Shown piece after piece: positions 252-38,210 of a DNA stretch of 64,000 bases. The notes under the pieces are model-generated. The model made no database searches, was not told the origin of the DNA, and saw nothing but the letters and a program-made list of their open reading frames with translations. The stretch is from a bacterium (GTDB lineage: Bacteria; Patescibacteriota; CPR2; UBA1875; JAJYID01), in the NCBI GenBank assembly GCA_021787535.1, contig JAJYLR010000001.1:492321-556320 (forward strand), read 5' to 3'. Numbering within the stretch: the stretch's first letter is position 1; each line of letters begins with the position of its first letter. A program made the position numbers and the translations under genes.

Positions 252-407
252 ATGGCAGATGCAACAATGGGTTACTGTGTAAAATGCAAAGAAAAAAGAG
301 AAATGCAGGATGCACAAGAAGTTACTATGAAAAACGGCCGAAAAGCTATGAAAGGTAAATGCGGCGTTTGTGGTACTGGAATGTACAAGATTTTGGGTAA
401 AGCTTAG
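252..407 (+). CDS. small zinc-ribbon protein, DUF5679-like (51 aa)
   Basis: ATG preceded by AGGAAAGGAGGTG SD; MGYCVKCKEK...KGKCGVCGTGMYKI with two CxxC pairs, pattern typical of DUF5679 mini-proteins common in CPR genomes. Confidence 0.55.
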   Translation: MADATMGYCVKCKEKREMQDAQEVTMKNGRKAMKGKCGVCGTGMYKILGKA

Positions 408-570
408 GCTTAACTTTTTGAGAATTTAAGAGCCTGTTCAGAGTTCCATATTGAGTTAAAATTTCAATGTAAGCTGTGAACAGGCTCTTAGTCCGTTTAA
501 TAAACATATTCAGAACGGGTTCTCCACCTGCACAAAAGAAAATATACTATCTCTTGATGGCATATTTTCT

Positions 571-593
571 TGGTACCGCGTACGGGATTCGAA
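571..593 (-). other. 23-nt duplicate of tRNA-Glu 3' end (T-loop to CCA), adjacent to GCGGCTCAACCGC hairpin
   Basis: TGGTACCGCGTACGGGATTCGAA identical to 743..765; no D-arm/anticodon arm present. Confidence 0.6.
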
Positions 594-742
594 GCGGCTC
601 AACCGCTCTTTTTATATTCGATTCCAAAACAATAAAACAGTTGAAAAATTGAGACTTTTCGTTGCTTGATTTATGCGGCTTCAGACGAGTTCTCACCCAT
701 ACACACAGAAAACTGCCAAGAAAAGGATTCTTGCCAGTTTTC

Positions 743-819
743 TGGTACCGCGTACGGGATTCGAACCCGTGATCTCCTGGATGAGAACCAGGTATCCTAG
801 GCCACTAGACGAACGCGGC
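743..819 (-). tRNA. tRNA-Glu (anticodon CUC)
   Basis: cloverleaf readable on minus strand: acceptor GCCGCGU/ACGCGGU, anticodon stem CCUGG/CCAGG with loop UUCUCAU, T-loop UUCGAAU, encoded CCA; followed by hairpin CTGGCAAGAA/TTCTTGCCAG + T-run. Confidence 0.85.
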
Positions 820-2455: not shown

Positions 2456-4159
2456 GTGAAGGAGGGTAATATAGAACTGGTAAGCTTGGGAGATTTAGAG
2501 GATCGGGATAAACTTGCTGATATAAGCAAATATTTTTTGTACTGCGTACTCGGACTAAATGTTATTGTTCTTCTAACTTTTTTAAGTTTAATTTTTTTGG
2601 CACGCAGCCAAGTTGGCGCAAATAATTTAGCAAAGATCACTCTAGGTATTGCCGTAACGGGAATCATCGTATTTTTCCCATCGCTGAAGGTGACTAAGAT
2701 GGAGCCAAAATATAATCTTTTGTTGCAATCATCTTTCATCTTGGCATATTTTGTAATTTTACTGGAGTTCACCGGCGGTACAGAGAGTTTATTTTATCCC
2801 CTAATTTTTCTTTTTATTATTTTGTCGGCTTTTTATTCACTGGTTGCCGGCATTTTAGTCGCAATCACTGCCTTTGCTTATTTTTTCTACCGCGAGCTAT
2901 ATTTAAATGGCCAAACATTAGCGCGCTTCTTTGTGCTAAATGGTTCCGGCCTTTTGACTCTTGCTTTAACTATAGTATTCTCTAGCTTGCTCGGCTTGAA
3001 ATATAGAAGAAGTACCTCAGAAAAATCAAGTCTTGAACAATATTCCAAAGATATCTCGGCTGATCAATCAAAAGATGAAGCAATTTTCGCTAATATCGGC
3101 GATGGCATATATGCAGTGAACACAAAAAGAGAGATGATACTTTTTAATCAAAGTGCAGAAAAGATCACTGGATGGAAATCAAAAGATACCCTTGGTCTTC
3201 CATGTAAAAAAATTATGAATTTAAAGGATGAGCAAAGCGTAAGCGTATGCGACAAGGACTGTCCGGCGCTTAGGGTTTGGAACACGGGAGAAAATATCAC
3301 GCGCGATGATCTCTGCTTTTTTGGAAATAGTAAAGAAGATTTAAGGATTGAGGGTACCTATGCTCCCATTAAGGATAAGGATGGAAAAGTCACCGGGGCA
3401 GTTTGTGTTTTTCGGGATGTGACTAAAAAGAAAGAAGTTGAGAGAATGCGCAGCGAATTTGTTTCAACAGCATCCCACGAGCTGCGTACGCCCATTACGG
3501 CAATATCCGGCTATATCGAACTGGTTTTGAATAATAAAGTCTGTACGGTTGACGACAAAGCAAAAGAATATTTAGGTAAAGCTTTTCAAACAGCCGCTTC
3601 AATGTCTAACTTAATTAAAAATCTGCTTGTCGTTACAAAAATCGAAGATAGAAAATTGCAATATAATGTCACTAATTTTTCTATGAAAGACTTGGTAGAA
3701 GAGGTAATAGAGGTTTTTCAAAATAAAGCTAGGGAGAAAAATATTGATCTCAAGTTTGAATCAAACCCGAACCTGACCGTAAAGGGTAAGGTGATTGATA
3801 GATCATTAAATGTCAAGGCCGACAAAGAACAAATCAGGGAAGTTTTGAATAACTTAATTGAAAATGCCATTAAATTTACTGCGAACGGAGGGGTGACAGT
3901 TTCGATCAGTTATGACAGCGACTTTGCAACCGTATGCGTTCGCGATAACGGAGTCGGCATACCTGAAACCGGGCAAAAGCATCTCTTTGAGAAGTTTTAC
4001 CAAGTTGATAATTCGGCCACAAGAGCAGTTGGCGGTACGGGTCTGGGACTCTATATCACAAGGGCAATTATAGAAGCGTTTGGCGGAAGAATATGGGTAA
4101 AAAGTATTGAAGGACAGGGCAGCAGTTTCTTCTTCACTGTACCCAGAGCACTTAGCTAA
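2456..4159 (+). CDS. sensor histidine kinase (multi-TM N-terminus, PAS, HisKA, HATPase_c)
   Basis: H-box STASHELRTPITAI; N/G boxes NLIENAIKFT...GTGLGLYI; several hydrophobic helices at N-terminus; GTG start as in ORF track. Confidence 0.85.
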   Translation: MKEGNIELVSLGDLEDRDKLADISKYFLYCVLGLNVIVLLTFLSLIFLARSQVGANNLAKITLGIAVTGIIVFFPSLKVTKMEPKYNLLLQSSFILAYFVILLEFTGGTESLFYPLIFLFIILSAFYSLVAGILVAITAFAYFFYRELYLNGQTLARFFVLNGSGLLTLALTIVFSSLLGLKYRRSTSEKSSLEQYSKDISADQSKDEAIFANIGDGIYAVNTKREMILFNQSAEKITGWKSKDTLGLPCKKIMNLKDEQSVSVCDKDCPALRVWNTGENITRDDLCFFGNSKEDLRIEGTYAPIKDKDGKVTGAVCVFRDVTKKKEVERMRSEFVSTASHELRTPITAISGYIELVLNNKVCTVDDKAKEYLGKAFQTAASMSNLIKNLLVVTKIEDRKLQYNVTNFSMKDLVEEVIEVFQNKAREKNIDLKFESNPNLTVKGKVIDRSLNVKADKEQIREVLNNLIENAIKFTANGGVTVSISYDSDFATVCVRDNGVGIPETGQKHLFEKFYQVDNSATRAVGGTGLGLYITRAIIEAFGGRIWVKSIEGQGSSFFFTVPRALS

Positions 4160-37390: not shown

Positions 37391-37413
37391 TGGCAGGGGT
37401 GGCAGGCTTCGAA
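37391..37413 (-). other. 23-nt duplicate of tRNA-Trp 3' end, adjacent to GCGGCTCAGCCGC hairpin
   Basis: TGGCAGGGGTGGCAGGCTTCGAA identical to 37570..37592. Confidence 0.6.
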
Positions 37414-37569
37414 GCGGCTCAGCCGCCAGTTTGCAAATACCTTATACTTAATACATTTAGCTTATTTTAGCATAAAATCAATCAATTTTCGATTTTGGCG
37501 TCTTCATAACAGTTTCTCAGCTACCACCCTACAAAACAAGAACCCCATCAAAAGATGGGAACCTTGTCT

Positions 37570-37645
37570 TGGCAGGGGTGGCAGGCTTCGAACCCGCGAC
37601 CTTCGGTTTTGGAGACCGACGCTCTACCAACTGAGCTACACCCCT
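37570..37645 (-). tRNA. tRNA-Trp (anticodon CCA)
   Basis: AGGGGUG...CACCCCU acceptor, D-arm GCUCAGUUGGUAGAGC, anticodon loop CUCCAAA, T-loop UUCGAAG, encoded CCA; terminator hairpin CCCATC/GATGGG downstream. Confidence 0.85.
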
Positions 37646-37949: not shown

Positions 37950-38210
37950 TTATCGCCATTCCCTAGATATTAGCTTCAATTTTTTTTCATGTGACCACTT
38001 CTTAGCCTGTATTTCCCTTTGTCTAGCCTCTGATTTACTGCCAAAAGGTTGCGACACATAAACTAGCTCAAATGGTCCTTGGTCTACTGCAAATTTAGCG
38101 CCATTACCAGAGTTGTGCTTTTTAATTCTCTCCACCAGATCAGTAGTCATGCCCACATATAACCTATTTGTCCTCGCTTTAGCTAAATAAATATACCATG
38201 GTTTCATCAC
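37950..38210 (-). CDS. GIY-YIG nuclease family small protein
   Basis: WYIYLAKARTNRLYVGMTTDLVERIKKHNSG GIY-YIG motif. Confidence 0.7.
   Translation of the reverse strand: MMKPWYIYLAKARTNRLYVGMTTDLVERIKKHNSGNGAKFAVDQGPFELVYVSQPFGSKSEARQREIQAKKWSHEKKLKLISREWR

Follow-up and report, generated by a model that had tools for sequence, protein, structure and literature searches.

Duplicated tRNA 3' ends in a Patescibacteriota genome as probable termini of divergent RtT-like tRNA-trailer units

The stretch of DNA analyzed here is a 64,000-nucleotide (nt) segment of contig JAJYLR010000001.1 (assembly GCA_021787535.1, positions 492,321 to 556,320 of the forward strand), which we call the window. It comes from a bacterium of the Patescibacteriota and carries near its beginning a tRNA-Glu(CTC) gene on the minus strand (743–819), called by both ARAGORN and Rfam with an Rfam tRNA score of 60.4 bits. 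The last 23 nt of this gene recur a short distance downstream. Read on the plus strand, the 23-mer TGGTACCGCGTACGGGATTCGAA has exactly two occurrences in the window, at 571–593 and 743–765, and 100 dinucleotide shuffles contained no match to it with up to three mismatches. The gap between the copies is 149 nt (594–742). The sequence GCGGCTCAACCGC at 594–606 adjoins the distal copy, is followed on the plus strand by a T-run and was flagged as terminator-like in a simple scan. The original prediction for this locus had noticed both the exact duplication and the hairpin with its T-run, and both are as it described them. It went on to propose the remnant of an integrative element or a miniature tRNA-targeting element. 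We consider it likely, from comparison of the sequences, that the repeat is instead the 3' terminus of a divergent RtT-like tRNA-trailer RNA unit.

On the tRNA strand, the Glu 23-mer reads UUCGAAUCCCGUACGCGGUACCA and extends from T-loop position 54 to CCA76. The junction on this strand is always GCGGYTGAGCCGC joined to TTCGAA in the units, and since it is constant, the copy begins exactly at T-loop position 54 and ends at CCA76. The copy belongs to a unit of about 150–180 nt located directly downstream of the tRNA gene and on the tRNA strand (Table 1). The order is the tRNA, a terminator-like hairpin with a U-tract (hairpin 1), a 12-nt strand, UGAGAA(C), an inner 5-nt copy of the T-stem 3' strand, the motif nUGAAGNCGC, about 70 nt of AU-rich sequence, the hairpin GCGGC-UGA-GCCGC, the exact 23-nt copy and often a second hairpin. 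In the Glu unit, the arms of hairpin 1 (inverted repeat I2) are 17 nt long and 94% complementary. A second such unit, which the original prediction missed, follows tRNA-Trp: the last 23 nt of that tRNA recur exactly at 37391–37413, adjoining GCGGCTCAGCCGC at 37414–37426. The start codon of a DUF6879 gene lies 9 nt past the end of the Trp unit.

Table 1. Features of the tRNA-Glu and tRNA-Trp units, in window coordinates
Feature	Position	Strand	Remarks
tRNA-Glu(CTC)	743..819	-	last 23 nt (743-765) are the proximal copy; ARAGORN, Rfam
Hairpin 1, terminator-like CUGGCAAGAA/UUCUUGGCAG then U-tract, directly after CCA	708..742	-	inverted repeat I2
Helix P1 5' strand UGUGUGUAUGGG	696..707	-	complementary (with U-G wobbles) to CCCGUACGCG in the distal copy
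UGAGAA (UGAGAAC including the next base)	690..695	-	conserved motif, alignment of 12 units
Inner T-stem 3'-strand copy	685..689	-	CUCGU here, CCCGU in relatives
Motif CUGAAGCCGC, consensus nUGAAGNCGC	675..684	-	alignment A3 columns 26-34, nearly invariant
AU-rich variable segment	607..674	-	31% mean identity in orthologous Glu units
GC hairpin GCGGU-UGA-GCCGC, 5 bp, closing pair a U-G wobble	594..606	-	
Distal exact copy of tRNA-Glu positions 54-76 (UUCGAAUCCCGUACGCGGUACCA)	571..593	-	P1 3' strand and free NCCA tail
Hairpin 2, AU-rich stem-loop and U-run directly after the distal CCA	536..570	-	inverted repeat I5
Partial second unit: GGUGGAGAACCCGUUCUGAAUAUG, degenerate 5' strand, GAGAAC, CCCGU, UGAA	505..528	-	read from sequence
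tRNA-Trp(CCA)	37570..37645	-	ARAGORN, Rfam
Trp-unit hairpin 1 (AGACAAGGUUCCCAUCUUUUGAUGGGGUUCUUGUUUUGU)	37532..37569	-	
Trp-unit body	37427..37531	-	
Trp P1 5' strand	37520-37531	-	
Trp UGAGAA	37514-37519	-	
Trp inner T-stem copy	37509-37513	-	
Trp motif UAUGAAGACGCC	37497-37508	-	
Trp variable segment	37427-37496	-	
Trp GC hairpin GCGGCUGAGCCGC	37414-37426	-	
Trp exact 23-nt copy of the tRNA-Trp 3' end	37391-37413	-	

The unit recurs in related genomes. A genome scan with the pattern GCGGYTGAGCCGCTTCGAA, covering one genome per species, gave 57 loci, about 47 of which are chance matches in GC-rich genomes. In nine of the remaining 10 loci, the module is fused to a tRNA 3' end, and all but one of the 10 are on low-GC (0.37–0.43) contigs of metagenome-assembled genomes (MAGs). 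Six scan loci have the identical 23 nt 135–169 nt upstream, where they end a tRNA. These six units follow Glu(CTC) tRNAs (L003, L046), Arg(CCU) (L005), Tyr (L017), Trp (L048) and Lys (L049). Further contigs reached through L33 and D-Ala-D-Ala carboxypeptidase homologues added a Tyr unit (L066), a Glu unit (L073), a disrupted Glu unit (L074) and a compressed 69-nt Tyr variant (L065). Of the relatives that carry a label, the nearest is a 'candidate division WS5 bacterium'. Hosts of the units are Glu, Trp, Tyr, Lys and Arg tRNAs together with one unidentified tRNA, and a conserved unit family is present at six or more tRNA species in the lineage. Every unit begins 0–45 nt downstream of its tRNA and on the same strand, and in every complete unit, the 23-nt copy is 100% identical to the end of the host tRNA. 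At six or more different tRNAs, the interval measures 112–146 nt and carries the same conserved motifs. Wherever the GC module is present in low-GC relatives it is tied to tRNA 3' fragments, as the original prediction had expected of a search for the module.

The ends of the unit are complementary. In single-sequence folds, helix P1 forms between the 12 nt that precede UGAGAA and the T-stem 3' and acceptor 3' strands of the distal copy. In the Glu unit, CCCGUACGCG represents the T-stem 3' strand plus the acceptor 3' strand of the distal copy, and the duplex has 10 bp at -14.4 kcal/mol compared with -4 to -7 when paired to non-cognate tails. The Trp duplex (GGGUGGUAG with CUGCCACCC) has 9 bp at -17.4 kcal/mol, and the disrupted Glu unit of L074 pairs AGUUUUAAGGGG with CCCCUUGGGACU over 12 bp, three of them U-G. 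The P1 duplexes range overall from -12 to -17 kcal/mol for cognate and -4 to -9 for non-cognate partners. In a block alignment of 12 units, 82.8% of the cells of P1 and the GC hairpin are paired, which falls to 33–54% if the partner is slid by 1–3 columns; for P1 alone the figure is 76%. The covariation score is 0.404 versus 0.17 in shuffles, a value reached in 0 of 500, and there are changes on both sides in 10 of the 12 P1 pairs.

The wobbles in P1 are nearly all of one kind, with U on the 5' strand and G on the 3' strand. Transitions that preserve pairing are found at 14 of 35 eligible positions, and those that disrupt it at 4 of 75 (Fisher p = 1.5e-5). Since these wobbles would be A-C mismatches on the other strand, the substitution pattern shows the P1 pairing to be selected on the tRNA-sense strand, i.e., as RNA. 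The 5' strand of P1 is the acceptor 5' strand of the tRNA fused to its T-stem 5' strand. Therefore, the folded ends imitate the top half of a tRNA: in the predicted fold, they can pair into an acceptor/T-arm mimic in which the discriminator base of the host tRNA and the CCA stay single-stranded. Positions 53 and 54 of the mimic are separated by an insert of about 110 nt.

The fixed core of the family consists of UGAGAAC, nUGAAGNCGC and the hairpin GCGGCUGAGCCGC. In UGAGAA, the U, A, G, A and A are invariant across the 12 units, and position 2 is G or A. The GC hairpin is paired in 98% of cells over the same units and includes two variants that are U-G on the tRNA strand. The position of hairpin 1 is occupied by a hairpin in 10 of 12 related units and is without one in L005. 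Among four orthologous Glu units, the variable segment has drifted to 31% identity, which is saturation, while the motifs are 80–91% identical and the copy 100%, so that motifs and copy are under constraint. As an alternative, the inner T-stem copy can pair with the final 5 nt of the P1 5' strand in a hairpin of which 88% of cells are paired. The GC hairpin also has a property on the opposite strand. With its T-run it scores as an intrinsic terminator on the plus strand at 594–616, opposite the tRNA, and in most units, an A-rich run precedes it on the tRNA strand; the GC module could also stop antisense transcription.

This arrangement has a counterpart in Escherichia coli. The tyrT operon contains 178-bp repeats, each ending in the 3' end of tRNA-Tyr, that encode the rtT RNA, which has been known since 1991. 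RtT is reported to be released from tRNA operon transcripts during processing, with a function that is unclear (PMC4986893; bioRxiv 10.1101/2024.07.17.603846). For reference, we used the E. coli tyrT locus, the loci with units after tRNA-Lys and tRNA-Arg (lysT, argV) and the RtT RNA (rttR) family of Rfam, RF00391. The tyrT and tyrV units read GGGGAAGG-(A/G)UGAGAA(G/C)-CUUCG and end in AAUCCUUCCCCCACCACCA. As in the window units, the GGGGAAGG strand is complementary to the T-stem/acceptor 3' strand and is followed by UGAGAA and then by a copy of the T-stem 3' strand. The outer helix of the RF00391 consensus (GgGaaGGAUGAGAAcCUUCG...AUCCuuCcCccaCCACCA) is the same pairing of 5' strand and 3' copy as P1. 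The E. coli units after tRNA-Lys (Rfam RtT scores of 47–60 bits) and tRNA-Arg each have the 18-nt end of their own tRNA and a 5' strand that matches it. Both kinds of unit stand immediately downstream of a tRNA on the same strand, both are about 130–180 nt long, and both occur in tandem and partial form, the E. coli case being a 3.14-fold tandem repeat.

There are also clear differences. The copy in E. coli comprises 19 nt for Tyr and 18 nt for Lys and Arg, including CCA, whereas the window-type copy comprises 23 nt and takes in the whole T-loop. The GC-rich internal hairpins of RtT (AACGUUGC..GCAACGG and CCCGAAGGG) are absent from the window type, which has the AU-rich variable segment and the GCGGCUGAGCCGC hairpin instead. 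Unlike RtT, the window type has a terminator-like hairpin separating the tRNA from the unit. The hosts are an uncultivated low-GC lineage on one side and, for RF00391, the tRNA operons of E. coli and Pasteurellaceae on the other; in the literature, we did not find RtT described outside the Gammaproteobacteria.

A covariance model, R1, was built from the 12 window-type units only. It scores 107.6 bits on the Trp unit (37391–37531) and aligns all four E. coli tyrT units at full length and in register, the best at 16.8 bits, with E = 0.0013 within the tyrT locus and 0.15 in a 264-kb search. In the other direction, the Rfam RtT model aligns the compressed L065 Tyr unit in register at 16.9 bits, which is below threshold; run on the window, Rfam reports tRNAs only. 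By these comparisons, the element shares the architecture and one key motif of RtT and is too diverged, or partly convergent, for membership by family score. The compressed unit of L065 (9805–9893) has GGGAUGAGAAGUUUAUCCCGACCGAAGCGUCGG followed by a 20-nt copy. It is nearer to the E. coli tyrT type than the window type is, and may be an intermediate form.

Several other RNAs bear a partial likeness. The consensus of the small RNA sX4 of Proteobacteria (Rfam RF02223) has a tRNA and then ...GGGGGGUGAGA, which comprises a strand complementary to the CCCCCC 3' strand of the tRNA and, after it, UGAGA; this comparison is made through the Rfam consensus, and the model represents only the tRNA and the start of the trailer. 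On the L065 Tyr locus it scores 27.9 bits (E = 2e-4), below the family threshold of 70 bits. The 3'ETS-leuZ sponge of E. coli is a functional RNA from a tRNA-operon spacer, freed by tRNA processing. It is likened here by description only, as another trailer or spacer RNA, but one lacking tRNA-end mimicry. In the tRNA-like domain of transfer-messenger RNA and in viral tRNA-like structures, the 5' and 3' ends likewise pair as an acceptor/T-arm with a CCA tail. Those have one fixed tRNA identity and an intact T-arm, whereas each window-type unit mimics its own neighbour and has its insert of ~110 nt between 53 and 54.

The same data bear on whether the units have any function. They might be leftovers of unequal crossing-over at tRNA loci, with the identity of the copy kept only by gene conversion. 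The partial tandem units in the window (505–528) and L049 and the 3.14 tandem repeats of E. coli are what such a process would leave, and the units of L065, L073 and L020 do look decayed. The core motifs, however, lie 100 nt from any tRNA sequence and are 80–90% conserved among saturated neighbouring bases; the 5' strand has its wobble-preserving bias (p = 1.5e-5); and the same design is found in Gammaproteobacteria. We regard functionless leftovers as unlikely. The partial unit in L049 (4680–4804) follows the distal copy in tandem and scores 26.7 bits with R1. It and the one at 505–528 of the window recall the fractional '3.14' repeats of E. coli tyrT.

It is possible to observe sites with and without the unit. 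L071 and L077 have an empty tRNA-Glu site and L046 and L073 a filled one, with flanks alike on both sides, so the comparison of presence and absence across relatives that had been suggested for this locus does reveal a polymorphism. L077 and L073 differ by one clean 178-nt indel that starts at position 54 and takes in everything through the GC hairpin. In L071, the empty tRNA-Glu is followed by the flank that in L046 comes after the distal copy; the identity of these flanks was read directly from the sequences, as MAFFT put the gap in the wrong place. At the orthologous Tyr locus, L017 and L066 are filled, and the window and L048 are empty. At the orthologous Trp locus, the window and L048 are filled, and L017, L065 and L066 are empty, with differing tRNA-Trp T-loops in these three empty-site genomes. 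The indels are equally well explained by insertion and by precise loss through recombination between the 23-nt repeats.

Exact boundaries of this sort, and a direct repeat that spans precisely the T-loop to CCA and bounds a discrete segment, are also what one would look for if the repeats were attL and attR. The element would then be a tRNA-targeting one with its interior deleted (a cis-mobilizable element, CIME, with att sites on both sides and no integrase), or a mini-element moved in trans by a tyrosine recombinase whose crossover lies in the T-loop. A duplicated block from T-loop to CCA is expected for integrases of that kind, and tRNA loci are dynamic in this lineage, as the nested tRNA-Glu fragments of L074 and the hybrid unit of L020 illustrate. 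Islands with attL/attR and CIMEs share with the units the duplicated tRNA 3' end and the polymorphism, but here there is neither integrase nor cargo, the helix has RNA-type wobbles, and the core is kept across tRNA targets. The 149-nt interval contains no conserved ORF, and no integrase gene lies between the repeats. No recombinase family was called by Pfam within ~10 kb in the five annotated related loci (L065, L066, L071, L072 and L077), the window's own ORFs not having been scanned exhaustively. A scan of viral contigs for the unit pattern gave only two chance matches, both in 60%-GC contigs.

The interior of the units speaks more directly against an integrase scar. Independent deletion remnants would not yield the same size and motifs at six or more tRNAs. 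Covariation of a fused acceptor-5'/T-stem-5' strand with the host tRNA by way of wobbles is not a property of att arms, and neither a foreign element nor a deletion remnant would covary with the host as this interior does through its 12-nt strand and inner 5-nt copy. Additionally, the GCCGC preceding the distal T-loop lacks the symmetry with the T-stem 3' strand that a core site would have. Taking these points with the RtT architecture, we think an integrase origin quite improbable. What survives of the original prediction is a discrete, recurrent, tRNA-associated element that is present in some genomes and absent in others; its interpretation as an integrase attL/attR scar does not survive.

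The indels could also be read as transposition. A transposable element resembling a miniature inverted-repeat transposable element (MITE), inserting at T-loop position 54 with a 23-bp target-site duplication, would place a common core at different tRNAs between host-specific 23-nt direct repeats, would give clean indels, and might explain the Lys-type unit in a foreign context in L020. However, a transposing element cannot carry a 12-nt 5' strand and an inner T-stem copy matched to each new host. No candidate transposase is present, nor are there terminal inverted repeats apart from the duplication; the only inverted repeat at the unit termini uses the duplicated tRNA sequence itself, and the variable parts are 31–35% identical. 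Orthologous units, moreover, have been retained in genomes in which neutral DNA has reached saturation. Known transposases produce duplications unlike one of 23 bp, which we also count against such an element, and we consider it very unlikely.

The unit of L020 (2875–3100) scores 116 bits with R1 and is located in a 56–62% GC contig of a 'Thermoleophilia' MAG. Upstream of it are tRNA-Val and a lone 3' fragment belonging to a different tRNA. The copy in this unit has GCA in place of CCA at its end and differs from the local tRNA-Lys; the unit may have been transferred horizontally, may have decayed or may result from a chimeric assembly.

The exact 53/54 boundary of the duplication could alternatively mark an intervening sequence, with the distal copy serving as a second joinable 3' end of an alternative or split tRNA. 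L074 provides tRNA halves that are bridged by complementary leader and trailer sequences, which would be in keeping with this. The proximal tRNA is complete, however, with a normal score, and so can do without splicing. Neither group I nor bulge-helix-bulge features are present in the interval, Rfam finds nothing in it, and the helix between the 5' strand and the distal copy excludes the tRNA body. A split tRNA is accordingly the most improbable of these explanations. In L074 (~2580–3080, identical in L075), a complete tRNA-Glu(CTC) stands between the 5' and 3' fragments of two older, split tRNA-Glu genes. The inverted repeats CCCCGCACTTATAA and TTATAAGTGCGGGG flank the inserted cassette, one gene is broken in the anticodon loop, and the oldest of the 3' fragments, a disrupted one, still has an RtT-like unit after it. 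The arrangement resembles either a mobile tRNA-gene cassette taking the place of the gene it disrupts or the leader/trailer pairing of a split tRNA.

Several other known systems were considered and rejected. A hammerhead core (CUGANGA/GAAA) is contradicted by the lack of conservation of the C and of space for the helices. A box C/D or kink-turn RNA was considered from the sequence and dropped, and the unit is too small for a group I or II intron and has no core of either. CRISPR- or omega-RNA-like guides, the homing spacer of a CRISPR-associated transposon (CAST) and an IS110 bridge RNA have no associated protein gene here, and the would-be guide is paired within the unit. A retroviral-type primer-binding site would be on the opposite strand, and the wobble pattern favours the tRNA strand.

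If the repeat is the end of an RtT-like unit, the pathway can be sketched by analogy. As for E. coli rtT, the unit would be transcribed by read-through from the tRNA promoter, and the tRNA-maturation machinery would release it and give it a CCA 3' end. Going by the RtT literature, the top-half mimic with its NCCA tail would define and protect this end, and the unit would persist as a small RNA whose end resembles that of a tRNA. One possible role is to mimic an uncharged tRNA. The unit may also be a cis-acting leader for the downstream gene, a role for which it is a candidate because the Trp unit ends so close before the DUF6879 gene. At the DNA level, the 23-nt direct repeats would permit precise loss or tandem amplification of the unit by homologous recombination, which would account for both the empty sites and the partial second units.

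Several points weigh against the RtT-like interpretation. Standing between tRNA and unit, hairpin 1 resembles an efficient intrinsic terminator, and inspection by eye found no separate promoter for the unit. The Tyr, L019 and L073 units have a weak P1, and the inner hairpin competes with the T-stem part of P1, with RNAalifold preferring the inner hairpin. The statistics are based on 12 units (11 distinct), several of them orthologues. RF00391 had no match to the window units at the gathering threshold (45 bits) or at E <= 10 at either locus, with E. coli as the positive control scoring 133–137 bits. Beyond architecture, the likeness to RtT consists of the UGAGAAC and GAAG-CG motifs only, for which convergence could be responsible. 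Expression and function of the unit are modelled on RtT, and three tRNA-specific segments would have to arrive at every new tRNA.

A bolder proposal is that RtT-like units are ancient and widespread top-half mimics, one per tRNA, from Gammaproteobacteria to an uncultivated candidate phylum. They would be matched to their hosts by templated copying, and the processed RNAs would act in trans as decoys of uncharged tRNA. We hold this to be rather doubtful. If it were true, the targets of the decoys would be the CCA-adding enzyme, EF-Tu, synthetases, stringent-response factors or tRNA-targeting toxins, and cells would have a tRNA-specific regulatory layer.

The block of tRNA-Glu and its unit with the promoter TTTTTGCTATAAT (window 253–819) is inverted compared with L046 (1460–2166), relative to the DUF5679 and carboxypeptidase genes, and the intervening genes likewise differ. 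In L048 (4387–4430), the Trp-type hairpin (ACAAGGTTCCCATCTTTTGATGGGGTTCTTGTTTT) comes after the distal copy; in the window (37532–37569), it comes after the tRNA itself, which suggests that units are reshuffled via recombination between repeats. On the minus strand of the window at 37950–38210, an ORF of 85 residues between tRNA-Tyr and tRNA-Thr(GGU) encodes a stand-alone GIY-YIG nuclease domain (Pfam E = 5e-16). The spacing of these two tRNAs is 4 nt in L048 and ~95 nt in L065, and because they lie so close there, the ORF is probably an insertion. In L066 (6563–7234, also L067–L070), a 223-residue protein that weakly matches HTH_23 is encoded by an insertion separating the L33 gene from tRNA-Trp. 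It is confined to one sublineage and absent from the window and L065.

For the study of tRNA loci in general, it follows that duplicated tRNA 3' ends alone are not evidence of integrase activity, and genomic-island pipelines that use tRNA-fragment repeats would mis-call RtT-like units. For the RtT RNAs, the analysis corrects the integrase reading, places RNAs of this type, at the strength argued above, in a distant uncultivated lineage and isolates their conserved core. A divergent relative that keeps few features points to what is essential in them: the host-matched end-to-end helix, the UGAGAAC motif and the exact copy of the tRNA 3' end, which are concrete elements to mutate in E. coli.

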